In this document: positions 2,428-61,986 of the stretch, in pieces | Layout: each line of letters begins with the position of its first letter | Position numbering within the stretch: position 1 is the first letter of the stretch | Assembly (NCBI GenBank): GCA_963514005.1 | Contig: OY740789.1 | Coordinates: 21,948,001-22,012,000 of the forward strand | Direction of reading: 5' to 3' | Length of the DNA: 64,000 nt | DNA from: Raja brachyura | Taxonomy: Eukaryota | Notes under the pieces: generated by a model | What the model saw: the letters and a program-made list of their open reading frames with translations, nothing else | The model's database searches: none | Told to the model about the DNA's origin: nothing | Translations under genes and position numbers: made by a program

Positions 2428-3278
2428 TGTTACGGGTCCCAAGGTTGGGCACCGTAAAGCAGATAGATAACCTGTATAAAAGCAGGTGTGAGAAGGCAAA
2501 TGAGGACACAGTGCATCTTAATTCATCCCCAGGTTGCTTCTGCTGGTTGTTTTATTCAATAATCATGTAAACACAAAACATTGCTCTTATCATTGGTTCA
2601 GTCATCCATTTTGTCTCTCCCTAACACACCCATTTTGTTACAGTTTCACTCACAGCCCATTCTTTCCTATGTTTCCCTTGTACTCAATACACTCTCTGTG
2701 CGATTTACACACTTGTATTTTTGATTTTACACTTCAATAAATATTATTAGGCACTTAATTAACCTTCACTGTACATTTCCAGCAACATGCTAAAAGTTGA
2801 CATTTGGCCTTTTTTTTCTATGCCATATCCTCATTGCAATGTCTGCAACCACTACAGGTTATGGAATGACCTAATAAGAAACATGCCCATGCTACACATT
2901 ATTATATCTTCCAACCCAGCACACAGAAACATTAACAACCAGTAACCCACTAACTTCAACTTTCTTAACACCCAAAACAACACAGAAACTTCACCCAACC
3001 ATATTCAAACCCCAAAAGTGCATATTTGTGTGGTCCTGACAGTCTACCAACCTGTATAAAAGCAGGTGTGAGAAGGCAAATGAGGACACAGTGCATCTTA
3101 ATTCATCCCCAGGTTGCTTCTGCTGAGATGGGGGGGGGGGGGAGTCCCTTGCTGTTTCCAGTCCCCGCAGCAACTGGAGTAACACAGAGGTTCCCCCTCA
3201 CTGCTGCACCTTATAAACTGCCAATACACCATCACATAAATTGAATCAATGTGGGCACACCGTCTTAGATGCGCCACA
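2428..3278 (-). repeat. 3' LTR (851 bp)
   Basis: Direct repeat of 9917-10766. By eye it differs only in a G-run (13 vs 12). Confidence 0.97.
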
Positions 3279-3289
3279 CGCTCCCCAAC
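3279..3289 (-). other. Polypurine tract candidate
   Basis: GTTGGGGAGCG on the minus strand directly abutting the 3' LTR. Confidence 0.65.
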
Positions 3290-3444
3290 AACAAAAGTGG
3301 CTCCTGACACTTATTTCAAATCGCAAGTGTCCATTGAAAATAATCAACAATCTTTCACAGACTCAAAAATATTTACAATATTCAAAATCTTCAACTATAA
3401 AAAAATATATGACTCTAGTTTGATTACATCACCACTGTTCATTC

Positions 3445-6400
3445 TCAATAACCCTGTACCGTACATGGCAAGTATGAATATTGGACCATGGGTGCACACT
3501 GGAATGATGGCCTGTACAGTGGGTGAGTATAGGGCATGAGGTACGTGCCAATAGTGTTCACAGCAGGAAATGGTTGATAGGTCGGATGACCAAGAGATGA
3601 GTAGGTGAGCCTTTGGACTGGCCGTCTTTCCCTTGTGGACCGTCTCACTGTAACAGGGGATCCAGGTTCAGAAGGTGAGAGAGAGTGATGCTCGAGATCT
3701 GCAACAATCTTCTCATCTTGTTCAGTGTCATGGGGAATGTCCTGATCATCCTCCTGTTGTGGTTCGCCTTCATCTGTTGAGTGTCTTTTCCATTGATCCT
3801 GTGGCTGTATTTCAGCTTCTGGTGGCCTCAAGTCCATTTCAGGTGATATTTGGACCACCATCCGTTCTTGACTTCTTTCATGTTTTCCGACTGATATGAA
3901 TGAATCTTTATCCCTTTGTCGGGTCACTCGAGTGGGTGTTCTTTGTGCTTGCTCATGTTGGATTCTGGCAGGTTTACTAGGAGTCTGAGCCGGCATTCTC
4001 TCAGGCGTAGCTGCTGTCCTTGGCTCAGCCCGACTTAGGGGTATCCTCAACCAATAACCTCCTCCTGACTCATCATCCGAGTCAGATGTCTCTGCATTCT
4101 CGGTTCTGTCTCTTATGTCACTCCTTCTCAGCTGAGGTTTCCTTTTCGTCTGTGGCTTTGAAGTTGGTTTGGTCTGCTGCGATGGGAATTCCACTGGTAA
4201 ATCATTGACCAGTAAAAGCAGGTTTCTATGCAGCGTCCTCAGTCTCCCTTTGCCATCGTTTTCTGGATGAATAACATACACTGGGTTGTCTGAGACTTGC
4301 TCTTTCACTACATATATCCTCTTTTCCCAGTAGGAACGTAGTTTCCCAGGCCCACCTCGCTCTCCCAGATTTCTAACCAACACTCTATCCCCAGGCTTCA
4401 GGACCACTCCTCTCACCTTCTGATCATAGTAGGACTTTCCTTTTGCACTTGAAGCCAGACTGTTGTTGTTAGCAATGCGGTATGCTTCCGCCATCCTTTT
4501 TTGCCACTTCTCAGCATAACCTTTGTGCGTCACTGGATCTATTTCTTCAGCCAACCCAAACAAGAGATCCACAGGAAGGCGAGGGTGTCGACCATAGAGA
4601 AGATAGTGAGGGGAATAGCCAGTGGACTCATGGCGTGTGCAGTTATACGCATGTACAACCTGTGGGAGATGTTCTTTCCATATCTCCTTTTCTATGTCTG
4701 TCAGAGTTCGCAGCATCTGCAGCAAGGTTCGATTGAATCGCTCTGCTGGATTACTTTGCGGGTGATATGGAGATGTTCGGGAATGTCCTACTCCAGAGAG
4801 CTGGCCAAGGGTTCGAAACAGTTCATTCTCGAATTCACGTCCTTGGTCATGATGGAGCTTGTTTGGGAATCCGAAACGTGGTACAAAGTCATTGTAAATC
4901 CGTTCTGCTGCCGTCCGGCCAGACTTGTTTCTTGTAGGGTAGGCCTGAGCAAACCTTGTAAAATGGTCAATTACTACTAGGATGTACTCATAACCGCCTT
5001 TGCTCTTTTTCAGGTGTAAGAAGTCGATACAAACCATTTCTAGGGGTGAGTTAGACTTCAGACCGCTCATTGGTGCACGCACATGCACTGTAGGCTTCTT
5101 CTGTTTGATGCAACTGCACTTCTTTGTTACATAGTCCTCGACACACCTTTTCATGTAGGGCCAGTAAAACCTCTCCCTGGCGAGGTGAAGAACTCTCTCC
5201 ATGCCCACATGTCCCATGTTGTCGTGGAGGTGCTTTAATACCACAGGGTGGTATTTCAGAGGTAGTACTAATTGTTTCCTACTTGTTGTTCTTCGGTACA
5301 GCAACCCATCCTCGATGTGCAACCTGCTCCACTCATGCAGAAGCTTGCATGCGCTTCCTCTCACAGTCCTTCTGATGTCGTCTGTCAATTTACTGTTCAT
5401 CTCTTTGAGCTTTAAGATCTTTCCTATCTCGGGATCCTCTCTTTGAGCTTGGACCAAGTCGTCATGACTAATGCTGTGTAGAGGGGCGCGGGGCTGTAGG
5501 ACAACATCTTGAGAGGAGACAGCGAGAGCGGCTATCCATGCCACATCTTTCCTCTGGGCTGCTTGACTTCCTTCCCAAGCTGCATTCACTACATCCTGCG
5601 ACAACTCCTCTGTGCATGTTGACATGTACTGGTCAATATCAAGAGGGACTCGGGACAGAGTATCTGCGTCCGTGTTGACTCTTCCTGGTCTGTACCTGAT
5701 GTCAAAATGGAAGTCTGACAGTTCTCCCACCCACCGGTGACCAACCGCATTGAGCTTGGCAGTGCTCATGATGTAAGTAAGTGGGTTGTTGTCAGTGAAG
5801 ATGGTAAAGTGTGGAGCATAATAGAGGTAGTCCCTAAATTTCTCGCACACTGCCCACTTAAGTGCAAGGAACTCCAACTTGCCACTATGCATATGGTAGT
5901 TCCTCTCTGCAGCTGTCAAAGTCCGTGACTCACACCCAATGACTCGTAGCTTTCCCTCCTGTTGCTGGTAGAGAACAGCTCCTAGACCTTGCTCTGATGC
6001 ATCGGTATGCAAGACGAAAGGCCTGTCGAAGTTTGGGTATGCCAAAACCGGTGGATGTGTCAACGTGTCAATCAGTCTCTCGAGTACACTTTGATGTTCA
6101 GCAGTCCACTGTATGGGTGCCCTGGATGACAGTTGGGGTCCCTTGGCTTTACCTTGTCGCGACTGGACTTGAATTGAGGATTTCCCTTGGAGCATCTCAT
6201 ACAATGGCTTTGCTATCTTTGAGAAGTTTTGAACGTATGTCCTGTAGTAACTGAGAAAACCGAGAACCCTTCTCAAATCACCTACCGTCTGTGGTGTTTT
6301 GTCTTTCAAAGCCAGCACAGCATTCAGGTCCTTGGGATCAACTCGAATACCGTTAGCAGAGACAAGGCGGCCAACATAGCGAACCTCTTGCTTGAACAAC

Positions 6401-8181
6401 TCACACTTTTCAGATCGGAGCTTTACCCCTTGATGTTGCAAAGCTTGGAGAACCCTGCGGACCACTTCCACATGATCTTCAAATGACCGCGAGTAGCAGA
6501 GGATGTCATCGAGGTAGGGTATACAGCACTCATCCCTCAGCGAACTCAACATCTCCTCCATACTTCTCTGGAATGCTGCTGGCGCATTTGATAGGCCAAA
6601 CGGGATCCTTACCCACTCATAAAACCCCCAGGGTGTGATGAAAGCAGTGAGATGACGTGAACTTTCAGCCACGAAACCCTGGTGGTAGGCCTTACCCTGG
6701 TCAAGGATGCTAAACCACGAGTAACCACCCAAGGTGTCCAGCAAGTCTCGTATTCGAGGCAGTGGGTGTCTATCCGGCACCGTTTTCTGATTCAATAGAC
6801 GATAATCTATGCAGAGGCGCAGCGTACCGTCTTTCTTCCGCACACACACAACTGGAGCGGCATAGGAGGACCTAGATTTCACAATCCATCCCTTGACAAG
6901 GAGGTCTTGAACATATTCCTTTACTTCTCTCAACAGCGGTTTTGGGATGGATGTGTACGCTCTCTGCACAGGAATGTCATCTTTCAGATTTATCACCATT
7001 TGCAGGCTTGGGTTGCATCCAATATCATTTTCATCTCTGGCAAAGGCTTTTGACTCCTCAAATAACATTTTCCTGACAACCTCTTGCTGATTTTCCTCCA
7101 GGTGATCAAGGTTCACGAGCGGATGCCACAGTGATGGAGTTGGTTGATGAAGTTGAGAGGTGACCTCGTTGACTGTTGTCATGGATGCCACTTTTCTTGG
7201 AGGGTCAGCTTCCACAACCCTTTCAATATGCTGTAAGGTGCCCAGGGCTGTCTTACGTGGCAAGATAATGTCATGGCTGGTGTTGTTGCCAACAGCAATG
7301 GTGACATACGGTTTTAAAGGATTCTGCATTTCAACCAAACCTGTTCCTAGATCTAGCTGATCCAAAGGCTGACTGCCTTCGTCTGATTCGAACAATACCA
7401 GACGGCCATAGGAGTTCATGGTTGGGGGAACCCGGCATCTCACCCAGCTGACTTGTCCAGCTGGAACGACCACGTCCTTTGCACCAGTTCTTAGGCATCC
7501 TTGTGGCATACTTGGCTCCACTGTCTGAATAAAACTCACCACTGCTTCGGCTTTCTCACTTGAAACACCAATGGCATTCTGAAACAACTGTATCAGAGTA
7601 GGTACTAACCTTTCTGGCTGTCCCTCAACAAGCTGCTCAAGAACATTAAAACCAATCAACGGTCTTTCCATGGTCAAGCTGCTAACTAAGAATGGGACAC
7701 TGATGGCAAGACTTGGGTCCTCATTCCCAGGTAGGTTGGTCATTATAGGAATCCATCCATCAAAAGGAATGAGCTCTCCATTGACTGCATAAACCTTTAG
7801 CTCATCCAGTTCCTCAATGATCTCAGACATTGGTCGAATGTTTAGATCAGGCAGGTGTAGATCTTTCCAGGCACGGCTGATAATACTAACTTGTGCGCCC
7901 GAGTCAAGCCATGCAGTTACCGCCAAACCACTTAGATTACATTGTATCAGAGCCTTCTTTCCTATCATGTTGGCGGCAGCTTTACGTTTGGTACATTGTG
8001 GTTCAAAAGAGAACTGAGAAGATGATTTGCTTTGTTTGTCATTGTACTGTGTGCTCGCTACTTCTGAAGTGGCGGACAAAGGAAGATCTGTATTGTTGTC
8101 ATCACAATCAGTTTGAGTTTGGGGACGTTTCTCAGATCCGATCACTGGGCGCCCCCCTGCAGCGACCGGTGCAAGTTTCCC
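3445..8181 (-). CDS. pol: Gypsy Pol (aspartic protease, RT, RNase H, integrase), entered by -1 frameshift
   Basis: 1599-aa open frame with DSGA protease motif, RLCIDYR/PFGL/YLDD RT motifs, TDAS...ELFLALKWA-type RNase H, HHCC zinc finger, D-D-E integrase (IDF, HHDQG, PAER) and a long low-complexity C-terminal tail. Confidence 0.96.
8121..8181 (-). other. -1 programmed ribosomal frameshift signal (slippery site plus H-type pseudoknot)
   Basis: G GGA AAC in the gag frame (8181-8175), 5-nt spacer, 10-bp stem CCGGUCGCUG/CAGUGAUCGG, loop GGGGGCG pairing with downstream CGUCCCC. pol is in the -1 frame. Confidence 0.85.
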
Positions 8182-9734
8182 TGACTCTTCTGTTTCTTTA
8201 AGCAGCCAACAGCTCTGTGGCCTTCCTCCCCACACGAGAAACAATGGTTACAGTCTGGGCAGTTTTGTTCAACACATTTTGGACAACCGTATGATTTATC
8301 TCTCCTGGGTCTCATTTTATTTTGAGAATATTGGTTCCTCACATCTGTTGGTTGTGGCTTAATTTGTCGTTTCATGGCCTCAATCATACTTGTGAGCTCA
8401 TCTACCTTGGCTGTAAGCTCTTTAATTGGGTCTGTCTTTACTTTTGGCGCCACACTCTCTTGCTTGCTACCCTGCTCTTTTGCTGTATTCGGCTCAAACT
8501 GTGCACCATGTGCATGAACTGCAGCCTGCCGACGAAAAGGACCTATCCTCTTTTGTCTCTCACTTTCTTCACTGGTGATTTTCATTACCTGGCGCAATAT
8601 TGTCTCATCACTTACTTCACCACTGGACAAGAGAGGTTTTATTTCTCTGCGTAGCTCACTATGTTTGTAGCCCAATCCCTGGTAAACTGTATGTAGGAAG
8701 CCATCTTGAACAGTGGCTGCACTGTATTTTATACCTGCGTCTGACAGTTTTGATGTGAATAGGACACGTTGCTTCAAACCTATGACACGATAGAGGAATT
8801 GTTGTGGTGTCTCGTTCTCCTCCTGCTTGGCACATATTAACTCTTGAAATAACTCTGCACTGCTTTTTTCTCTTAGGTGAGCCTGGAGAAATCCCTTGAG
8901 TTCCATCACAGTCAAGTCATCCTTGTTCATTAGCATCTCTTTAAAAATTCCAGGTTTCATTATCCGGAGCACACCACGAACTATCTCTGCATCATGGAAG
9001 CCTTCTTTGATCCCTTCTTCTATTTGCTTACAGACATTGCTATAACTGATGTCTGACGAATGATCACCAACCTGGCCCCCTTGTACCTTAAACTCCCTTC
9101 TCTGGAGATAGGCGAGATCTCTTATGGAAATCATCCCCTCTCGATTGGGTTGAACAACTGTCGGGTTGTGGTATGATGAGTCACTTCGAGACTTATTAGC
9201 CTGTGCTGCTACTGGCGGACAGTCTTCTGGTGACTGAGTTGTCGGTACCATAATGCTTTGTTTCAGCCTTTTACCAAGCTCCTCATAGCTAGTGAGCATT
9301 TCGAGTAACTCTACGTTTGTGGAGTCAGATACAGCAGTAGGTAGTACTGGGTCAGTGGTGAAAGCATCACTGTTTGGCAAAGTAGAACTGACTTGGAACA
9401 TTTGGTTAGTAGTATCTCCATGAGCACCTATGGGTTGTGTTTCTAGCTCTGGCAAACACAATACTTTTCGGGTCTTTACAATATCATCAATAGCATCTTT
9501 CAAACCCAACAATTCAGACATTCCACTGTCTTCTGACTCTAACAAATGCTTACTGTACATGAATGAACTGATTTTGTCGAAGCAGCCTTCATGGTCTCCT
9601 TCATGGAGTTCAGACAGGTCCCAATCTGACGTTGAACCCATCTCTTTGGCGATGTGACAAAGCTCTGCAGCTGACAAGGTGAGCAGTGACTTCCGAATGT
9701 CCCACACTAGGCTCTTCCTCCCACTCTCTGACAT
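8142..9734 (-). CDS. gag: Gypsy Gag (530 aa)
   Basis: ATG-initiated ORF downstream of the PBS with [10 protein letters not shown] major-homology-like motif and C-terminal CX2CX4HX4C knuckle ([14 protein letters not shown]) preceded by extra CxxC pairs. Confidence 0.95.
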
Positions 9735-9893
9735 GGCAGCAGCGTTTCACCGTCCTTCACGATGGATCACAGTTCAGCAATGGCACAGTCTCTGCTCCGA
9801 CTCACCGCTCTCGGCACTCAGCTCGAATGAGCCCTGTCTCGGTCTCAGGTGTCATTAGTTGATCAGCTCCACTCCAACCACGAAGTGGCGCCG

Positions 9894-9911
9894 ACCCCGG
9901 ACGAGCCCCCA
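9894..9911 (-). other. Primer binding site, tRNA-Pro
   Basis: TGGGGGCTCGTCCGGGGT, 17/18 match to the canonical Pro PBS TGGGGGCTCGTCCGGGAT, 5 nt inside the 5' LTR. Confidence 0.9.
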
Positions 9912-9916
9912 CGATC

Positions 9917-10766
9917 TGTTACGGGTCCCAAGGTTGGGCACCGTAAAGCAGATAGATAACCTGTATAAAAGCAGGTGTGAGAAGGCAAATGAGGACACAG
10001 TGCATCTTAATTCATCCCCAGGTTGCTTCTGCTGGTTGTTTTATTCAATAATCATGTAAACACAAAACATTGCTCTTATCATTGGTTCAGTCATCCATTT
10101 TGTCTCTCCCTAACACACCCATTTTGTTACAGTTTCACTCACAGCCCATTCTTTCCTATGTTTCCCTTGTACTCAATACACTCTCTGTGCGATTTACACA
10201 CTTGTATTTTTGATTTTACACTTCAATAAATATTATTAGGCACTTAATTAACCTTCACTGTACATTTCCAGCAACATGCTAAAAGTTGACATTTGGCCTT
10301 TTTTTTCTATGCCATATCCTCATTGCAATGTCTGCAACCACTACAGGTTATGGAATGACCTAATAAGAAACATGCCCATGCTACACATTATTATATCTTC
10401 CAACCCAGCACACAGAAACATTAACAACCAGTAACCCACTAACTTCAACTTTCTTAACACCCAAAACAACACAGAAACTTCACCCAACCATATTCAAACC
10501 CCAAAAGTGCATATTTGTGTGGTCCTGACAGTCTACCAACCTGTATAAAAGCAGGTGTGAGAAGGCAAATGAGGACACAGTGCATCTTAATTCATCCCCA
10601 GGTTGCTTCTGCTGAGATGGGGGGGGGGGGAGTCCCTTGCTGTTTCCAGTCCCCGCAGCAACTGGAGTAACACAGAGGTTCCCCCTCACTGCTGCACCTT
10701 ATAAACTGCCAATACACCATCACATAAATTGAATCAATGTGGGCACACCGTCTTAGATGCGCCACA
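9917..10766 (-). repeat. 5' LTR (850 bp)
   Basis: Direct repeat of 2428-3278, adjacent to the PBS. Confidence 0.97.
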
Positions 10767-11134
10767 TATACAAACATAAGGTCAAGTCAATGCACAACAC
10801 AAGAGAAAATACCAGACTGCAAAATATAGTATTACAGTGTTGTAGTGTTACGGCAACAGAAAGTACAGATCAAAAAAAGGCCATGCACCAAGTGCAGTAT
10901 TATGCAGGATGGATAAGTCAACCATAGGGAAAGTTGTAGCTTCATCCTAGCCTGAGCCACCACTAATTACTATCAGATGGTTTTAATTGCATCAAAAGCA
11001 ACCCAACAGGGCCATTGGGAAAGTTTTTGTTTTAACATATCAGTAGTACAGTCGTGAATTCACCTCCAGACATTGGAGATGTGGAACTTCCAATTTGCTT
11101 CAAAATCTTGAGAAAGGAATAAGAACATAAGATA

Positions 11135-21035: not shown

Positions 21036-24000
21036 GTCAAGTCAAAGTCAAAAGAGTTTATTGTCATGTGTCCCTGACAGGACAATGAAAATCTTTCTTT
21101 GCATTGCACAACAGGACATAGAAGGCATTGACTACAATTCTATACATAAATACACCCATGAATTAATAAATTAATAAAGTGCAAATAACAGATGGAGGGA
21201 TATTAATGATTAGAGTTCCGAGCCAGGTTTAATAGCCTGATGGCTGTGGGGAAGTAGCTATTCTTAAACCGGTTGTTGCAGTCTTCAGGCTCCTGTACCT
21301 TCTACCCGAAGGTAGCAGGGAGATGAGTGTGTGGCTAGAGTGGTGTGGGTCCTTGATGATGCTGCCAGCCTTTTTGAGGCAGCGACTGTGATAAATCCCC
21401 TCGATGGAAGGAAGGTCAGAGCCGATGATGGCCTGGGCAGTGTTTACTACTTTTTTGAGTCTTTTCCTCTCCAGGGCGCTCAAGTTGCCGAACCAAGCCA
21501 CGATGCAACCAGTCAGCAAGCTCTCTACTGTACACCTGTAGATGTTAGAGAGAGTCCTCCTTGACAGACCAACTCTCCGTAATCTTCTCAGGAAGTAGAG
21601 GCGCTGATGAGCTTTCTTAATAATTGCATCTGTGTTCTCGGACCAGGAAAGATCTTCACAGATGTGCACGCCCAGGAATTTGAAGCTCTTGACCCTTTCC
21701 ACCATCGACCCGTTGATATAAACAGGTCTGTGGGTCCCCATCCTACTCCTTCCAAAGTCCACAATCAGTTCCTTGGTTTTGCTGGTGTTGAGGGCCAGGT
21801 TGTTGTGCTGGCACCATATGGACAGTCGCTCGATCTCTCTTCTATACTCGGACTCATCCCCATCAGTGATACGTCCCACAACAGTGGTGTCGTCAGCGAA
21901 CTTGATGATGGAGTTCGCGCTATGACCGGCTACGCAGTCATGAGTATAGAGTGAGTACAGCAGGGGGCTGAGCACGCAGCCCTGAGGTGCTCCCGTGCTG
22001 ATTGTTATCGAGTCTGACACATTTCCACCAATACGAACAGACTGTGGTCTGTGGGTGAGGAAGTCGAGGATCCAATTGCAGAGGGATGTGCAAAGACCCA
22101 GTTCTGCGAGTTTGGTAACCAGCTTGGAGGGGATGATTGTGTTAAATGCCAAGCTGTAGTCAATAAATAGCAGCCTGACATGAGTTTTTGATGTCCAAGT
22201 GGTCCCGAGCGGAGTGGAGGGCCAGCGAGATCGCGTCCACCGTTGATCTGTTGTGGCCGTAAGCGAACTGCAGTGGGTCCAGGTTTTTGTCGAGGTAGGA
22301 GTTGATTTGCGCCATGATCAACCTCTCGAAGCACTTCATCACCACAGGCGTTAGTGCCACAGGTCGATAGTCATTGAGGCACGTCACCTTGCTCTTCTTG
22401 GGCACCGGTATTATTGATGCCCTTTTGAAGCAGGTGGGAACCTCAGACCTCAGAAGTGACAGGTTGAAAATGTCCGTAAAAACTCCAGCCAGTTGGTCCA
22501 CACAGGTTTTTAGGACACAACCAGGTATACCATCAGGTCCAGACGCTTTTCGAGGGTTCACCCCACTGAAGGATTTCCTGACGTCGGCCTCTGTGACTGA
22601 GACTGAAATACCATCACAGCGAATAGGGGCTCGGAAAGGCACATCGGTGTTCTCCCTATCAAAGCGTGCGTAAAATGCATTGAGCTCATCAGGGAGTGAT
22701 GTATCGCCGACATCTGAGCTGCCTCCTGGTTTCGCCTTGTAAGAGGTGATTGCATTCAGTCCCCGCCACAGCTGCCGAACATCTGTCTCATCCTCCAGCT
22801 TGGAGCAGAACTCCCTTTTGGCCTTTTTGATGGCCTTACCAAGGTCGTATCTGGACTTCTTATAGACCACTGTGTCATCAGACATGAATGCCCGGTGTCT
22901 GGCCTTCAGAAGAGTGCGGATCTCACAGTTCATCCAAGGTTTCTGATTGGGAAATACTCGGAAGGTTTTTATAGGGATGCAGTCCTCCACACATTTCTTT
23001 ATGAAGTCTGTAACGACTGTGGCATATTCATTCAAGTCTGTTGCCGAGTCCTTGAACATAGCCCAGTCTACAGACTCCAAACAGTCTTGTAGTTGTTCTT
23101 CTGCCCCGCCGACCAGCTCTGTACTGTCCTCACCTCTGGGGGTGCACTCTTTAATTGCTGCCTGTAGGCAGGAAGAAGCAGCACCGCGGTATGGTCGGAT
23201 TTACCGAAGTGAGGGCGAGGGATAGAGCGGTATGCATCCTTGATGGTGGTGTAGCAGTGGTCGAGGGTGTTTGGTCCTCTAGTGCAGCAGGAGACATGTT
23301 GGTGGAAGTTGGGGAGTGACTTCTTTAGGTTTGCCTTATTGAAGTCCCCAGCAATGGTGGTAAATGCCTCGGGGTAAGACGTCTGGTGTTTGTTGACCAC
23401 GGCGTGCAGCTCCTCCAGTGCCAGACGGACGTCTGCCTGGGGTGGGATGTAGACCGCGGTCAGTATGATGGAGGTGAATTCCCTCGGTAGGTAGAAGGGA
23501 CGGCACTTCACCGCCAGATGTTCGAAGTGTGGAGAGCAGGAGTTGGACAGGACTACTACGTCTGAGCACCACGCAGAGTTGACCATGAGGCAGACATCCC
23601 CTCCTCTCCATTTCCCTGATGCCAGTGTATGGTCCATACGGCGGATGGAGAACCCTTCAGGCTGGACTGCTGAGTCTGGGGAGCTGGGGGTGAGCCATGT
23701 CTCTGTGAAACAGAACACAGAGCATTCCCTCAGCTCCCTTTGATAAAGCAGCCTTGCCCTTAAATCCTCCACTTTATTTTCAAGGGACTGTACATTGGCC
23801 AGTAGGATAGTAGGGAGAGGGGGCCGAAGTCCCCTGCGCTTCATTCTGACCTGAAGTCCTGCCCGTCGGCCACGTTTCCGGACACAATGGAGGCTTCTCC
23901 TTTGTTTCCAGGTACTGTGTTTCCTGTACCTGCTGTTTCTGTGGACCAGCGCTGGAACGGGAATTCCCTCAGAATCAGCAGCTCCAGCTCCGTAACGAAC

Positions 24001-47704: not shown

Positions 47705-48100
47705 TCTATATAAATAAAAGTCTAATCTTGACCACTTCCTGTTTGTGTTGTATATTGATTTTGGAAAAAAGGCTACCACTTACGCCTGTGATTTTTGGCC
47801 ATCTAACTCATAGTCCCCCTCCGCTCATCAAGTGCAGAGGATTTTTCTCATCGATGAAAAATAAAAGAGTTATTAGTGTTTAAAAAATGTTGAAATTCTC
47901 TCTCCTGTCAATCACTGCCATGAATGCCATGCCCCTTCTAGGGGTGGGGGGAGGAGCTATAAAACCCAGAAGTCTGAACGAGGCTTTGTTGCTGCAAGAT
48001 GGCGAGTGAGAGGTCACGATTCTCAGTCTGAGCTGTGAATTTACAGAACACTGAACTTACAGAATTTACTGAACTGTGAGTGCCCTTTATGTGTTTATAA
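47705..48100 (+). mobile_element. Helitron-like 5' terminal segment (non-autonomous)
   Basis: A|TCTATATAAATAAAAG start typical of Helitron 5' ends, running directly into a tandem array. No 3' hairpin-CTAG found. Confidence 0.55.
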
Positions 48101-51100
48101 ACTGTGCCTTTTGCAATGTGTGCCTTTTGCAATGTGTGCCTTTTGCAATGTGTGGCCATTGAAACTGTGTGGCCATGGAAACTGTGTGGCCATGGAAACC
48201 GTGTGGCCATGGAAACCGTGTGGCCATGGAAACTGTGTGGCCATGGAAACCGTGTGGCTATTCAAATGTGTGGCTATTCAAACGTGCAGCTATTGCAACG
48301 GTGCGGCTATTGCAACGTGCGGCTATTGCAGCTGTGCGGCTATTGCAACTGTGTGGCTATTGAAACGGTGTGCCTTTTGAAACTGTGTGCCTTTTGCAAC
48401 TGTGCCTTTTGCAACTGTGCGGCCATGGAAACTGTGTGGCCATGGAAACTGTGCGGCCATGGAAACCGTGCGGCCATGGAAACCGTGCGGCCATGGAATC
48501 CATGTGGCCATGGAAACCGTGTGGCTATTCAAACGTGTGGCTATTGCAACGTGCGGCTATTGCAACGTGCGGCTATTGCAACATGCGGCTATTGCAACTG
48601 TGCGGCTATTGCAACTGTGCGGCTATCGCAACTGTGCGGCTAACGCAACTGTGCGGCTATCGAAACTGTGCGGCTATCGAAACTGTGCGGCTATCGAAAC
48701 TGTGCGGCTATCGAAACTGTGCGGCTATCGAAACTGCAGTTATTAAAATCTGTGCCTTTTACAACTGTGCCTTTTGCAACTGTGCCTATTGCAATGTGTA
48801 GCTATTGCAATTGTGTGGCTATTGAAATTGTGCGGCAATTGAAACTGTGTGGCTATTGCAACTGTGTGGCTATTACAACTTTGTGGCTATTGCAACTGTG
48901 CCTTTTACAACTGTGCCTATTGAAATGTGTGGCTATTGCAACTGTGTGGCTAATGCAACTGTGCCTTTTGCAACTGTGCATTTTGCAGCTGTGCATATTG
49001 AAATGTGTGGCTATTGCAACTTTGTGGCTATTGCAACTGTGTGGCTATTAAAATGTGTGCCTTTTGCAACTGTGCCTATTGAAATGTGTAGTCATTGAAA
49101 TTGTGTGGCTATTGAAACTGTGGCTATTGAAACTGTGTGGCTACTGCAACTGTGTGGCTACTGCAACTGTGTGGCTACTGCAACTGTGTGGCTACTGCAA
49201 CTGTGTGGCTACTGCAACTGTGTGGCTACTGCAACTGTGTGGCTGTTGCAACTGTGTGGCTGTTGCAACTGTGTGGCTGTTGCAACTGTGTGGCTGTTGC
49301 AACTGTGTGGCTGTTGCAACTGTGTGGCTGTTGCAAATGTGTGCCTTTTGCAACTGTGCCTTTTGCAACTGTGCCTTTTGCAATGTGTGACTATTGAAAT
49401 AACCATATCACCATATAACCATATAACAATTACAGCACGGAAACAGGCCTTCTCGGCCCTTCCAGTCTGTGCCAATCGTTTATTTTCCCCTAGTCCCATC
49501 TACCTGCACTCAGACCATACCCCTCCATTCCCTTCCCATCCATATACCTATCCACTTTACTTTTAAATGTTAAAATTGAACCTGCCTCCACCACTTCTGC
49601 AGGAAGATCATTCCACACAGCCACCACTCTCTGAGTAAAGAATGTGTGGATATTGCAATTGTGCGGCTATTGAAATTGTATGGCTATTAAAGATGTGTGG
49701 CTATTGAAATTGTGCGGCTATTGAAATTGTGTGGCTATTGAAACAGTGTGCCTTTTGCAATGTGTGCTTATTGAAACGTGTGGCTATTGAAACGTGTGGC
49801 TTTTGAAACGTGTGACAATAGAAATGTGTGGCTATTGAAATGTGTGGCTATTGCAACTGTGTGGCTATTGCAACTGTGTGGCTATTGCAAATCTGTCCCT
49901 TTTGCAACTGTGTGCCTTTTGCAACTGTGCCTTTTGCAACTGTGCGGCTATTGAAACTGTGTGGTTATTGCAACTGTGTGGTTATTGCAACTGTGCGGCT
50001 ATTGCAACTGTGCGGCTATTGAAATCTGTGCCTTTTGCAACTGTGCCTTTTGCAACTGTGCCTATTGAAATGTGTGCCTATTGAAATGTGTGACTATTGA
50101 AACTGTGTGGTATTGAAACTGTGCGGCTATTAAAATGTGTTCCTTTTGCAACTGTGCAGGTATTGCAAATGTGCGGCTATTGCAACTTTGCGGCTATTGC
50201 AACTGTGCGGCTATTGCAACTGTGCGGCTATTGCAACTGTGCCTTTTGAAACTGTACCTATTCAAATGAGTGGATATTGCAACTGTGTGGATATTGCAAT
50301 TGTGTGGCTATTGCAACTGTGTGGCTTTTGCAACTGTGCAGATAGTGCAACTGCGGATATTGCAACTCTGCGGCTATTGCAACTGTGCGGCTATTGCTAT
50401 TGTGCGGCTATTGCTTCTGTGGGGCTATTGCTCCTGTGCGGATATTGGTACTGTGCGGCTATTGCTATTGTGCGGCTATTGCTTCTGTGGGGCTATTGCT
50501 TCTGTGCGGCTATTGCTCCTGTGCGGATATTGGTACTGTGCGGCTATTGCTACTGTGTGGCTTTTGAAAGTTTGCGACTATTGAAAGTGTGCAGCTATTA
50601 TATTTGTGCTTTTTGCAACTGTGCCTATTGAAATGTGTGGCTATTGAAATGTGTGGCTATTGAAATTATGTGGCTATTGCAACTGTGTGCCTATTGCAAC
50701 TGTGTGGCTATTGCAACTGTGTGGCTATTGCAACTGTGTGGCTATTGCAACTGTGTGGCTATTGCAACTGTGCCTTTTGCAACTGTGCCTTTTGCAACTG
50801 TGCCTTTTGCAACTGTGCCCTTTGCAACTGTGCCCTTTGCAACTGTGCCTATTGAAATGTGTGGATATTGCAACTGTGTGGATATTGCTACAGTGCAGAT
50901 ATTCCTACTGTGCGGATATTGCTACTGTGTGGCTATTGCTACTGTGCAGCTATTGTTACTGTGCGGATATTGAAAGTGTGCGGCTATTGAAAGTGTTCGG
51001 CTATTTAAAGTTTGCGGCTATTGAAAGTGTGCGGCTATTGAAAGTGTGCGGCTATTGAAAGTGTGCGGCTATTGAAACAGAGTGCCTTTTGCAACTGTGT

Positions 51101-54100
51101 CTTTTGAAATTGTGCCTATTGAAATGTGTGGCTATTGAAATTATGTGGCTATTGAAATTGTGTGGCTATTGAAACTGTGTGGCTATTAAAATGTGTGCCT
51201 TTTGCACTGAGCCTTTTGCAATGTGTGGCTATTGAAACATATGGCTATTGAAACGTTTGGCTATTGAAATGTGTGGCTATTGCAACTGTGTGGCTATTGC
51301 AACTGTGCGGCTATTGCAACTGTGCGGCTATTGCTACTGTGCGGCTATTGCAAGTGTGCAGCTATTATATTTGTGCCTTTTGCAACTGTGCCTTTTGCAA
51401 CTGTGCGTATTGAAAAGTGTGGCTATTTAAATTGTGTGGCTATTGAAACTGTGGCTATTAAAATGTGTGCCTTTTGCACTGAGCCTTTTGCAATGTGTGG
51501 CTATTGAAACGTGTGGCTATTGAAACGTGGCTATTGCAACTGTGTGGCTATTGCAACTGTGTGGCTATTGAAACTGTGTGGCTATTGAAACTGTGCGGAT
51601 ATTGAAACTGTGCGGTTAATGAAATCTGTGCCTTAAGCAACTGTGCCTTTTGCACTGAGCCTTTTGCAATGTGTGGCTATTGAAACGTGTGGCTATTGAA
51701 ATTGTCTGGCTATTGAAATTGTGTGGCTACTGTGTGGCTATTGAAATCTGGGCCTTTTGCAACTGCTCCTATTGAGCCACTGTGTGGCTCTTGCAACTGT
51801 GTGGCTCTTGCAACTGTGTGGCTCTTGCAACTGTGCCTATTGAAATTTGTGGCTATTTAAATGTGTGGCTATGGCATTTGTGTGGCTATTGAAAATGTGT
51901 GGCTATTGAAATAGTGTGGCTGTTAAAATTGTGTGGCTGTTGAAATTGTGTGGCAATTGAAATTGTGTGGCGATTGAAATTGTGTGGCTATTGAAGCTGT
52001 GGCTATTAAAATGTGTGCCTTTTGCACTGAGCCTTTTGCAATGTGTGGCTGTTGAAACGTGTGGCTATAGAAACGTGTGGCTTTTGAAACGGGTGGCTAT
52101 AGCAACGGTGTGGCTATTGCAACTGTGCGGCTATTGCAACTGTGCGGCTATTGCAACTGTGCGGCTATTGCAACTGTGCGGCTATTGCAACCGTGCGGCT
52201 ATTGAAACTGTGCGGCTATTGAAACTGGGGCTATTAAAATGTGTGCCTTTTGTAACTGTGCCTTTTGCAATGTATGCCTTCTGCAATGTTAGGTTATTGG
52301 AACATGTGGCTATTGAAACATGTGGCTTTTGAAATGTGTGGCTATTGAAACGTGTGGCTATTGAAACATGTGGCTATTGAAACGTGTGGCTATTGCAACA
52401 ATGTGCCTTTTGCAACTGTGCCTATTTAAATGTGTGGCTATTGAAATGTGTGGCTATTGAAATGTGTGGCTATTGAAATGTGTGGCTATTATAATGTGTG
52501 CCTTTTACAACTGTGCCTATTGAATTGTGTAGCTGTTGCAATTGTGTGCCTATTGCAACGGTGTGGCTATTGCAACTCTGTGCCTTTTGCAACTGTGCCT
52601 TTTGCAACTGTATGGATATTGCAACTGTGTGGCTATTTTAACTGTGTGGCTATTGCACCTGTGTGGCTATTAAAATGTGTGCCTTTTGCAACTGTGCAGC
52701 TATTGCAACTGTGCGACTATTGCAACAGTGCAGCTATTGCAACTGTGTGGCTATTAAAATGTGTGCCTTTTGCAACTGTGCCTTTTGCAATGTGTGCCTT
52801 TTGCAATGTGTGGCTATTGGAACGTGTGGCTATTGAAACGGGTGGCTTTTGAAACGGGTGGCTTTTGAAACACATTGCAGTAGCCACACATTAGCAATAG
52901 CCACAGTTGCAAAAGGCACAGTTGCAAAAGGCACACATTTCAATAGGCACAGTGCAAAAGGCACACATTTCTATTGCCACACAGTTGCAAGAGCCACACA
53001 GTTGCAATATCCACTCATTCGAATAGGCACAGTTTCAAAAGGCACAGTTGCAATAGCCGCACAGTTGCAATAGCCACACGTTGCAAAAGGCACACGTTGC
53101 AAAAGGCACACGTTGCAAAAGGCACACGTTGCAAAAGGCACACATTGCAAAAGGCACAGATTTCAATAGCTGCACAGTTTCAATAGCCGCACAGGCTAAT
53201 GCAACTGTGCGGCTATTGCAACTGGGTGGCTATTGAATCTGTACGGCTATTGAAATCTGTGCCTTTTGCAACTGTGCCTTTTGCAACTGCACCTATTGAA
53301 ATGTGTGGCTATTGAAACTGTGTGGATATTGAAACTGTGCGGCTATTGCAACTGTGTGCGGCTATTGCAACTGTGTGCGGCTATTGAAACTGTGTGCGGC
53401 TATTGAAACTGTGGCTATTGCAACTGTGTGGCTATTGCAACTGGGCGGCTATTGAAACTTTACGGCTATTGAAATCTGTGCCTTTTGCAACTGTGCCTTT
53501 TGTAACTGTGCCTTTTCAAACTGTGCCTATTCAAATGAGTGGATATTGCAACTGTGTGGATATTGCAACTGTGTCGCTATTGCAACTGTGGCTATTAAAA
53601 TGTGTGCCTTTTGCAACTGTGCGGCTATTGCTACTGTGTGGCTATTAAAAGTGTGTGGCTATTGCAATTGTAGCTATCGAAACTGTGTGGCTATTAAAAT
53701 GTGTGCCTTTTGCAACTATGCCTATTGAGTGTGTAGCTATTGTAATTGTATGTCTATTGCAACTGTGTGGCTATTGCAACTGTGCCTTTTGCAACTGTGC
53801 CTATTGCAACTGTGTGGCTATATTAACTGGGTGGCTATTGCAACTGTGTGGCTATTAAAATGTGTGCCTTTTGCAACTGTGCAGCTATTGCAACTGTGAG
53901 GCTATTGCAACTGCGTGGCTATTAAAATATGTGCCTTTTGCAACTGTGCCTTTTGCAATGTGTGCCTTTTGCAATGTGTAGCTATTGAAATGTGCGGCTA
54001 TTGCAACTGTGCGGCTATTGAAATGTGTGGCTATTGAAATGTGTGGCTATTGAAATGTGTGGCTTTTGAAATTGTGTGGCGATTGAAACTGTGTGGCTAT

Positions 54101-54897
54101 CGAAACTGTGGCTATCGAAACTGTGTGGCTATCGAAACTGTGTGGCTATCGAAACTGTGTGGCTATTAAAATGTGTGCCTTTTGCAACTGTGCCTATTGA
54201 AATGTGCAGATATTGCAACTGTGTGGCTATTGCAACTGTGTGGCTATTAAAATGTGTGCCTTTTGCAACTGTGCGGCTATTGCAACTGTGCGGCTATTGC
54301 TACTGTGCGGATATTGAAACTTGTGTTGATATTGAAACTGTGCGGCTATTGAAAGTGTGTGGCTATTAAAATGTGTGCCTTTTGCAACTTGTCCTTTTGC
54401 AATGTGTGGCAATTGAAATGTGTGGCTATTGAAACATGTGGCTATTGAAACGTGTGACTATTGAAACGTGTGGCTATTGAAATTGTGTGGCTATTGAAAT
54501 TGTGTGGCTATTGAAATTGTGTGGCTATTGAAACTTGTGGCTATTGAAACTTGTGGCTATTGAAACTGTGTGGCTATTGCAACTGTGTGGTTATTGCAAC
54601 TGTGTGGCTATTACAACTGTGTGGCTATTGCAAATGTGCGGCTATTGCAAATGTGCGGCTATTGAAATGTGCGGCTATTGAAATGTGCGGTGATTGAAAT
54701 GTGCGGTGATTGCAACTGTGCGGCGATTGTAACTGTGCGGCGATTGCAACTGTGCGGCGATTGCAACTGTGTGGCTATTGCAACTGTGCCTTTTGAAATG
54801 TGTAGCTATTGCAATTGTGTGGCTATTGAAATGTGTGGCTATAGAAACTGTGCTGCTATTGCAACTGTGCGGCTATTGCAACTGTGCGGCTATTGTG
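48100..54897 (+). repeat. 6.8-kb complex minisatellite (15-17-bp units GCAACTGTGTGGCTATT / GAAATGTGTGGCTATT / GCAACTGTGCCTTTT)
   Basis: Directly visible tandem periodicity with locally homogenised variant blocks. Confidence 0.97.
49400..49641 (-). mobile_element. CR1-type 3' end inserted in the minisatellite
   Basis: (AACCATAT)n tail, GGAAACAGGCC...CATTCCACACAGCCACCACTCTCTG. Confidence 0.8.
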
Positions 54898-60948: not shown

Positions 60949-61986
60949 TAGCAATGTTACAAAATTTTGAGATTTAAAAAATCAAGTCTGCAATTTATCC
61001 CATTAGATAAAGCATAAAAATAAGTTTAATTTGACAGCTAATTCACTTTCATATCTTCAGTATTAAAAAAGTTATGGCCATTTTCATACTCGGAAATTAG
61101 CATCTTGTTCCCCGTTGCCTTTCCATTGACTTAACTCAAAAGCTGTGATCTGGAACAGTTAAAAGCCCATGACTTCCTTAAAAATTAAGAGAACTCAATG
61201 AAAAATTCAGTTATTATAGATTGAAGCATTCTGAAACAAATATGAAACAATCTTACTTGGATGACCTGAAATTAAAGCATATAATTAGTTAGATACCTAA
61301 TTGTAGCTAATTACAAAATTCAATTACTAGATCTAAACATCTATCTATTTCTTAAGAAATGATAAACATTTTTAAAATGCCTAAATGTCCAAATAACATT
61401 CACACTATAATCCACAGTATAACATGATTTTTAAATCTCATTTTCATGAATTTATAGGCCAAATTGAAGGAATTTAGTGTTTAATTCCTGTAAATTAATG
61501 GCCATTTAAATCAACGTGAGTGGGTTTTAGTGGAACGCGGCGGACTGGAACGTTGCGGTTTGCGGTGAATTTAACCCACAGTCGGCAGGGAAAATACAGC
61601 CGGTTCATTTCTTTTGTCCCCTTTTTGCATGGTGAAAATTTGATTAAAGGCTTCCCAAGAAGCACGTTTTTATGTAAAAATAAACTGTGTAGCTTCTTTT
61701 ATCGCCTACATTAGGTCCGTTCCGCTGTCGGCGTTCACGGCTTTAGAAGATTATTTTTAAACTACTCTAGCTAATAAATGATCTAGCGTAGTTTAAAAAT
61801 ACTTTCATAAAACAAATGTCAGAGCGATTTCTCTTTAGCAACAAAATCGCCTGAGATTGATCGATTTGGACTGCCTGGGGAAAAACGGCATTTTAAACCC
61901 GCCCCCCTCTGAAAGTCACCAAAGTCGCGCACACGGGGAGTGGCAGAACTGCAGCACCGCTAAAGGTAGGTATTGTAACATGCCTG
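60949..61986. mobile_element. Non-autonomous TIR DNA transposon, copy 2 (complete, ~1.04 kb)
   Basis: TAGCAATGTTACAA ... TTGTAACATGCCTG imperfect TIRs; colinear with 1-875. Confidence 0.72.

Follow-up and report, generated by a model that had tools for sequence, protein, structure and literature searches.

How does a retrotransposon come to carry, within each of its long terminal repeats (LTRs), two identical blocks that bracket what reads as an intron, when retroelements are expected to lose introns? The question is raised by an element on the minus strand of a 64,000-nucleotide stretch of DNA (the window), in which the first block is followed by a donor-like site and the second ends in an acceptor-like one. 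The element, its copies and its relatives, all read here from genomic DNA, make it probable that the LTR contains a spliceosomal intron which is restored during reverse transcription.

Architecture of the element and its duplicated block

The minus strand of positions 2428-10766 is a young Ty3/Gypsy retrotransposon. Its 5' LTR (9917-10766, 850 bp, TG...CA) and 3' LTR (2428-3278, 851 bp) show a single difference, one C within a poly-C run, and are flanked by the target-site duplication (TSD) TATA, with the left copy at 10767-10770 and the right copy at 2424-2427. A primer-binding site (PBS) complementary to the 3' end of tRNA-Pro lies 5 nt past the 5' LTR (9894-9911), the complement being called as tRNA-Pro at three of four loci, and a polypurine tract region (3279-3292) directly precedes the 3' LTR. 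The internal region contains a gag-like frame of 534 aa from stop to stop (8142-9746), which ends in a C-terminal CCHC-like motif and gave no match in a Pfam search, and a pol frame of 1600 aa (3445-8247) in which Pfam places RVT_1 at residues 469-626, RNase H at 714-846 and integrase at 997-1163. This RT-RNase H-integrase order is that of Ty3/Gypsy elements and is accompanied by paired TG...CA LTRs, a short TSD, a PBS and a polypurine tract. For an aspartic protease before the RT, Pfam gave no match; an LDSG motif, which may mark this enzyme, occurs in the frame. The element family as a whole shows two coding layouts, a separate gag frame of 534-543 aa overlapping pol, as in the window, and a continuous frame of ~2,100 aa, both of which are found with long LTRs and with short ones.

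Read in the sense direction, each window LTR consists of 152 nt, block 1, the site CAG/GTTGGT (the slash marks the proposed splice junction), 503 unique nt, AATAAA, 5 nt, block 2 and 44 nt. In the 5' LTR the first segment is U3 proper (10615-10766), the putative promoter part, which contains TATAAG at 10703-10698 in place of TATAAA and a poly-C run; there is no canonical TATA box in the window LTR. The poly-C run (10617-10630, just 5' of block 1) varies in length by more than 10 nt among 30 copies, and its length also differs between both LTRs of a single element.

The duplicate itself is as an earlier note on this DNA had described it: the blocks at 10538-10614 and 9958-10034 in the 5' LTR and at 3049-3125 and 2469-2545 in the 3' LTR are all identical, and 77 nt is the maximal exact extension in both LTRs (BLAST E 6e-38). 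The 580-nt GT-AG unit named in the same note (9961-10540, the proposed intron) starts with GTTGGT and ends with TTTTATACAG, and the AATAAA at 10040-10045, 5 nt before copy 2, is the sole one in the LTR. Copy 1 would comprise the proposed first exon (10614-10541) and the start of the donor, the final 3 of its 77 nt (GTT) lying beyond the splice junction. In older copies of the element the donor reads GTCGGT, and block identity stops at CAG/GT.

Analysis of the splice-site candidates reveals that the donor CAG/GTTGGT matches U1 at seven of nine positions, the best value among the 70 GT sites of the window LTR. At the other end, copy 2 closes with a pyrimidine tract and a CAG acceptor, whose tract is 75% pyrimidines and stands within the top 5 of 52 AG sites in this LTR. 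The unit has the sequence features of a U2-type intron, namely GT-AG ends, a U1-complementary donor and a pyrimidine tract before the AG, and it also shares the foamy-type arrangement of a donor 5' of the poly(A) signal inside the LTR. It contains 20 ATGs, and 44 nt of LTR (9917-9960, the U5 remainder) follow the acceptor. Folding of the segment from block 2 to the PBS was not above shuffles (z -0.59). Contigs of four of 11 runs (none on record as RNA, two of the four flagged as probably DNA) contained no joint across the 580-nt unit and no pile-ups of starts or ends, which speaks neither for nor against splicing. Junction reads are ambiguous for this family: spliced RNA starting inside block 1 reads like unspliced RNA starting in block 2, and collapsed genomic copies, described below, carry an identical junction, so that such reads alone cannot prove splicing.

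Collapsed LTRs and homogenisation of the blocks

A DNA search of the 2.7 Gb genome gave 338 candidates, and the 40 that were scored are all 98-100% identical. Pattern searches located 108 sites with block 1 plus donor (control 0) and 151 block-2 sites (control 1). The ~270-bp collapsed LTR variants that the earlier note had predicted are present and common, with 99 young matches (control 0) against 108 long ones, besides 17 older collapsed matches (control 0). By eye, the 99 young matches resolve into about 42 pairs, one triple and 12 singles. Twenty collapsed pairs were fetched. All 20 have lost exactly 580 nt from both LTRs, and 17 retain an intact TSD; because these loci were chosen as pairs, the count speaks for exactness and for passage through reverse transcription, not for frequency. 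The absence of exactly 580 nt from both LTRs, together with the intact TSDs, implies that collapsed elements passed through reverse transcription. With about half of the young LTRs collapsed, the intron-containing LTR is not rebuilt faithfully each cycle, contrary to the supposition of the earlier note.

Four elements are mixed, with one long and one short LTR; the 5' LTR is the short one in three and the long one in the fourth, a ratio of 3 to 1 that is uninformative as evidence from polarity. One locus, L159 (G000:C9:2301100-2303200), part of a tandem of elements, has three blocks and two 580-nt units in its 3' LTR. Retrocopies with a poly(A) tail, from which the cleavage site could be read, were searched for and gave 0 matches. 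An assembly artefact is ruled out because the 108 long and the 99 short sites differ in their flanks and TSDs, and is further countered by long-LTR contigs in independent runs. In contigs from two other organisms the long LTRs show the older variant pattern, with T13 in each of the two blocks and, among the matches listed, G2 for block 1 only.

The two blocks of an LTR can be compared through the variants they carry. Seventy fetched loci, made up of the 30 best hits, 20 loci picked for variant blocks and 20 long pairs, yielded 83 parsed LTRs, 79 of them with both blocks, and 58 loci once pairs were merged. At block position 13, the two copies agree at 53 of the 58 loci (TT 18, CC 35) and are discordant at five. 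Further variants are common to both blocks at position 31 (4 LTRs), 41 (1) and 51-52 (1). The left end of the block behaves differently: G4 occurs in copy 2 only in 14 LTRs and in copy 1 in none (by eye, in 24 of 100 listed copy-2 sites versus 0 of 100 listed copy-1 sites), T8 occurs in copy 2 only in three LTRs, and G2 is found in copy 1 only in 12, in both copies in three and in copy 2 only in none. The pattern suggests that homogenisation sets in at about position 9-13, rarely at position 2, and extends rightwards, and, since G2 is never in copy 2 alone, it fits a direction from copy 1 to copy 2. The sharing of variants also speaks for transcription of block 1 at the 5' end. A Fisher p of 5e-10 obtained for this sharing overstates independence and is not a test on independent events, because the shared variants are few and inherited; moreover, 20 of the 70 loci were chosen for variants.

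Cleavage is expected 15-30 nt past AATAAA, which here corresponds to block positions 10-25 and coincides with the homogenisation boundary. A transcription start at 10614, the block boundary, had been predicted; because copy-specific variants persist at positions 4 and 8, the usual start or jump point is better placed at about 10606-10602. All 24 G4 sites counted by eye carry C13, including two insertions with T13 in copy 1, which are best read as recombinants or as cases in which position 13 derived from the stub of block 2 left by cleavage. Many scattered single-copy differences are probably post-insertion. A parent-daughter comparison of L064 to L171 found two LTR variants shared and no rare internal variant in common.

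The internal regions of short and long elements are interspersed in a tree of 44 such regions, from which one deleted copy was left out, with nine changes of LTR type versus 15 when labels are shuffled; the starred branches force at least two long/short changes, and one starred clade unites four long and three short elements. Among 100 minor variants shared in 42 young elements, 57 occur in both LTR types. For variants with at least three carriers, nine are short-only against 2.0 expected (p 0.0035) and three are long-only against 2.8. The view of short elements as dead ends is ruled out by this excess of short-only shared variants; tree and variants together suggest that collapse recurs and that some short lineages multiply. 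Since short-only shared variants exceed chance, the LTR intron is useful rather than essential. None of 13 tested poly(A) hexamers is present in the short LTR, and read-through transcripts would let short elements replicate without a hexamer of their own.

Distribution of the layout among related families

Twenty related loci were drawn from metagenome and genome collections; nine had no usable LTR, five retained the LTR 3' end only and six were assessable. The five 3' ends (L132, L136, L140, L142 and L144) have, by eye, an acceptor-like CAG 27-85 nt before the end. Of the assessable relatives, L135, L143 and L148 have a block duplicate and L134, L146 and L147 have none. The earlier note had proposed related families as a check, and in the three with a duplicate the same layout is kept with unrelated LTR sequence, no similarity of blocks between families extending beyond 7-14 nt in BLAST.

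Specifically, L135 (RT-RNase H 77% identical) has an exact duplicate at 6614-6682 and 7305-7373 with an identity of 68 nt, CAG/GTCAGT after copy 1 (rank 1 of 87 GT sites) and an AATAAA that abuts copy 2. In L143 (RT-RNase H 59%), whose long LTR was pieced together across contig ends, the duplicate spans about 85 nt, 63 of them exact, and is followed by CAG/GTAATA (rank 3 of 142 GT sites); a CATAAA lies inside the block, and a collapsed LTR stands beside the PBS. The most distant of the three, L148 (RT-RNase H 42%), has an exact 61-nt duplicate within provisional LTR limits, CAG/GTATGT (rank 1 of 56 GT sites) and an AATAAA inside the duplicated block. Exact identity stops 0-1 nt past the AG in these three families, and in the window it covers 74 nt and runs 3 past. 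Across the four families with a duplicate, the donor therefore ranks first in three and within the top three in the fourth (n=4), the pyrimidine tracts are good without being unique (rank 2-5 among AG sites), and the PBS is of tRNA-Pro type throughout.

The relatives that lack a duplicate differ in their PBS as well. L134 (RT-RNase H 78%, different PBS) has an LTR of ~305 nt that is either collapsed or plain, and L146 and L147 (RT-RNase H 45-46%, another PBS) have long LTRs. In L147 (5132-7260) a strong donor-like CAG/GTAAGT occurs near 5572, and in L146 (269-866) a CAG/GTAGAT occurs near 540 and is followed near 655 by a site resembling an acceptor.

The RT tree groups the window element with L135 and L143 in a starred clade that excludes L148, which allows both origin scenarios: the layout may be old, with losses, or may have arisen repeatedly. 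The clade is large, 5,825 of 8,000 scored proteins matching at E <= 1e-50; the top named hits are teleost, and zebrafish, medaka and tilapia proteins are among the relatives, which makes the mechanism testable. The design appears, on balance, somewhat likely to be widespread, with many animal Gypsy elements replicating from 5'-LTR-spliced RNA and rebuilding the intron by transfer to a duplicated stub.

Within the element's own genome, two distant gag queries recovered only this family (78 and 75 scored candidates). The same genome has 240 other sites with a tRNA-Pro PBS right after a CA end, and 20 of them (L071-L090) showed no gag similarity, no intact clade pol and no such LTR duplicate when fetched. 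These 20 loci are unrelated or only distantly related to the window pol, many have LTRs of 450-650 bp, and they are probably endogenous retroviruses. The window gag-like protein is 73% identical to a protein of Sebastes, a teleost, and the RT-RNase H segment (5668-6930) is 84% identical to a tilapia record. As these searches of the genome brought up no further family of the clade, this teleost likeness makes horizontal transfer from teleosts possible, if the host is a cartilaginous fish; other repeats of the window appear to be of a cartilaginous-fish type. The viral contig collections scanned held no usable clade locus, and phages none. Loci L142-L150 are Gypsy elements in records labelled bacterial genome bins, presumably host DNA.

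Proposed replication cycle, alternatives and known systems

In the cycle that best accommodates these observations, transcription would begin within block 1 of the 5' LTR or immediately ahead of it, and splicing of the cap-proximal intron would give an RNA that begins block-U5-PBS, freed of AATAAA and of the 20 upstream ATGs. At the other end, the AATAAA of the 3' LTR (2551-2556), the proposed working poly(A) signal, would direct cleavage 10-25 nt into block 2 (predicted near 2536-2521), leaving the first 10-25 nt of the copy at 2469-2545 as a putative R stub; because cleavage this early removes the acceptor, the intron would stay. The minus strong-stop DNA made on block 1 of the 5' LTR would anneal to this stub, and the RT would then copy back through the intron, block 1 and U3. 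The new LTR would thus regain the intron, and its block 2 would be templated by block 1 from roughly position 9-13 onwards. Should strong-stop DNA land instead on block 1 of the 3' LTR (3049-3125), the presumed alternative landing site, both daughter LTRs would collapse to 270 bp. Because collapse is common and, barring recombination, one-way, and because short elements retain some capacity to replicate, probably by read-through, the long form must bring an advantage, which could consist of splicing-linked expression or export, a clean leader and, in this family, a strong poly(A) signal hidden from the 5' end.

The splice-and-regenerate core of the earlier note thus receives indirect support from both of its genomic checks, the layout in relatives and the ~270-bp collapsed LTRs; what does not survive is faithful rebuilding in each cycle and a homogenised tract running from +1. 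Its further idea, that splicing removes the 5' poly(A) signal and so prevents premature termination, fits the window family and L135 but not L148 and perhaps not L143, where AATAAA and CATAAA, respectively, lie inside the block. As one or two relatives keep the signal inside the block, its removal is not the general purpose, and the general gain is more likely the intron as such. Points against the mechanism are the five of 58 loci discordant at position 13, the C13 found with every G4 counted by eye, the excess of short-only shared variants, the pyrimidine tracts that are not unique and the missing duplicate in L134, L146 and L147.

The same splicing can be combined with a start upstream of block 1, for example ~30 nt past TATAAG, near 10670. 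This variant is rather unlikely, and what probability it has forms part of that assigned to the rebuilt intron, which is common to both. Full-length strong-stop DNA would then hit block 1 and cause collapse, and only early jumps to the stub would rebuild the long form, in agreement with the high collapse rate, with crossovers spread over positions 2 to 13 and with the TATAAG itself; yet the window LTR is without a canonical TATA box, and in L135 and L143 nothing TATA-like lies close to the block, which is directly preceded by other motifs that we assume to be promoter-like. A distinctly unlikely alternative is mostly unspliced replication, in which R is ~600 nt long, U1 at the donor suppresses the 5' poly(A) signal and occasional spliced RNA homogenises or collapses the blocks. 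Precedents are found in foamy viruses, described as placing the major donor 5' of the poly(A) signal in R (PMC3694450), and in HIV-2, whose RNA spliced in the 5' leader is reported to be kept out of particles (PMC3315320), and both the discordant loci and the three-block LTR of L159 fit some unspliced strong-stop DNA or DNA-level exchange. The collapse of about half of the young LTRs and the presence of single-copy variants in both blocks (41, 51-52) nevertheless call for frequent copying, and exact identity in four families is hard to maintain by rare events.

Dispensing with splicing altogether is very improbable. The blocks would then be a chance tandem or insertion duplicate whose copies stay alike through template switching or gene conversion, while collapse would be slippage or deletion between direct repeats. 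Direct repeats do get deleted during reverse transcription, and mixed elements occur in both polarities (3 versus 1), as this account would have it; it leaves unexplained that in four of four duplicate families the identity stops at CAG and copy 1 is followed by a top-ranking donor, that homogenisation spares the left end of the block alone, and that a duplicate so prone to deletion has lasted in families whose RTs are 42-77% alike. Hardly credible is an ordinary LTR of the RSV/MMTV type, with the start in block 2, the poly(A) signal in U3 and block 1 as a recent passive duplicate: an AATAAA placed immediately ahead of block 2 is typical of that class, and the short LTR of L134 may operate in this way, but block 1 should then evolve independently, whereas in old and young subfamilies alike the two blocks have variants in common, and other families have duplicates of their own.

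The intron rebuilt by reverse transcription, which remains the preferred explanation, can be set beside several known systems. Retroviruses have three described ways to avoid 5'-LTR polyadenylation (PMC3694450). In RSV, MMTV and HTLV-1 the poly(A) signal is in U3 (PMC3694450), upstream of the start; the spliced RNA proposed here would resemble theirs in having a 5' end without the signal and a short R, but the signal lies downstream of the proposed start and would be removed by splicing, and the R-like block is present twice. The R of foamy viruses likewise has a donor and then a poly(A) signal inside both LTRs, but suppression there is ascribed to U1 binding and RNA structure, and the available text describes neither an acceptor-ending duplicate nor intron rebuilding (PMC3694450). 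The HIV-2/SIV leader also has an intron inside R-U5, whose removal is reported to raise Gag translation; that intron survives by not being spliced, spliced RNA being excluded from particles, whereas the genomic traces here point to a spliced template (PMC3315320). Penelope-like elements with a 5' UTR intron keep an intron at a terminal repeat through retrotransposition, but have no LTR strand transfer, and the significance of their intron is called unknown (PMC8557442). Closest in logic to the rebuilding step are engineered split-intron retroviral vectors, in which reverse transcription copies a 3'-LTR donor to the 5' LTR and so creates an intron; as far as the accessible description goes, these are artificial, work for a single round, have the acceptor outside the LTR and are built to block further replication (PMC3182074).

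The element may possibly belong to the Barthez clade of fish Ty3/Gypsy elements, to which the likeness is one of sizes only. Barthez5 is listed with a gag of 526 aa, a pol of 1580 aa and an LTR of 259 bp, and Barthez1-3 with LTRs of 1025-1116 bp; the shared features are gag, an RT-RNase H-integrase pol, similar sizes and a split into short and long LTRs, and, unlike the present account of the window LTR, the text of the Barthez paper as available does not contain the words 'intron', 'PBS' or 'tRNA' (PMC11117352). A literature search, with subscription journals, Repbase reports and bioRxiv supplements outside its coverage, yielded no natural LTR in which a spliced intron is restored via a duplicated block; the element is of a known kind, and its proposed LTR mechanism, for which the indirect genomic support is strong, is apparently undescribed.

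If the mechanism is true, it would add a fourth way of sparing the 5' LTR from polyadenylation to the three described for retroviruses, and it would show how introns can be retained in nature, since a retroelement could keep an intron indefinitely. U3-R-U5 would be redefined for a large clade, and the presence of short and long LTR forms within the same clade would be explained, the short and long LTR 'families' in repeat libraries being two products of one element. Solo LTRs, in turn, would each contain a promoter-exon-intron-acceptor unit that is portable and can be spliced into host genes.

Elsewhere in the window, positions 48100-54700 hold an array of 17-bp units with an inverted segment near 52780-53190, dispersed LINE-like fragments ~93-94% alike lie at 1014-1994, 21549-22667 and 61115-61362, and several SINE-like or LINE-tail repeats (families D10-D19) are also present.
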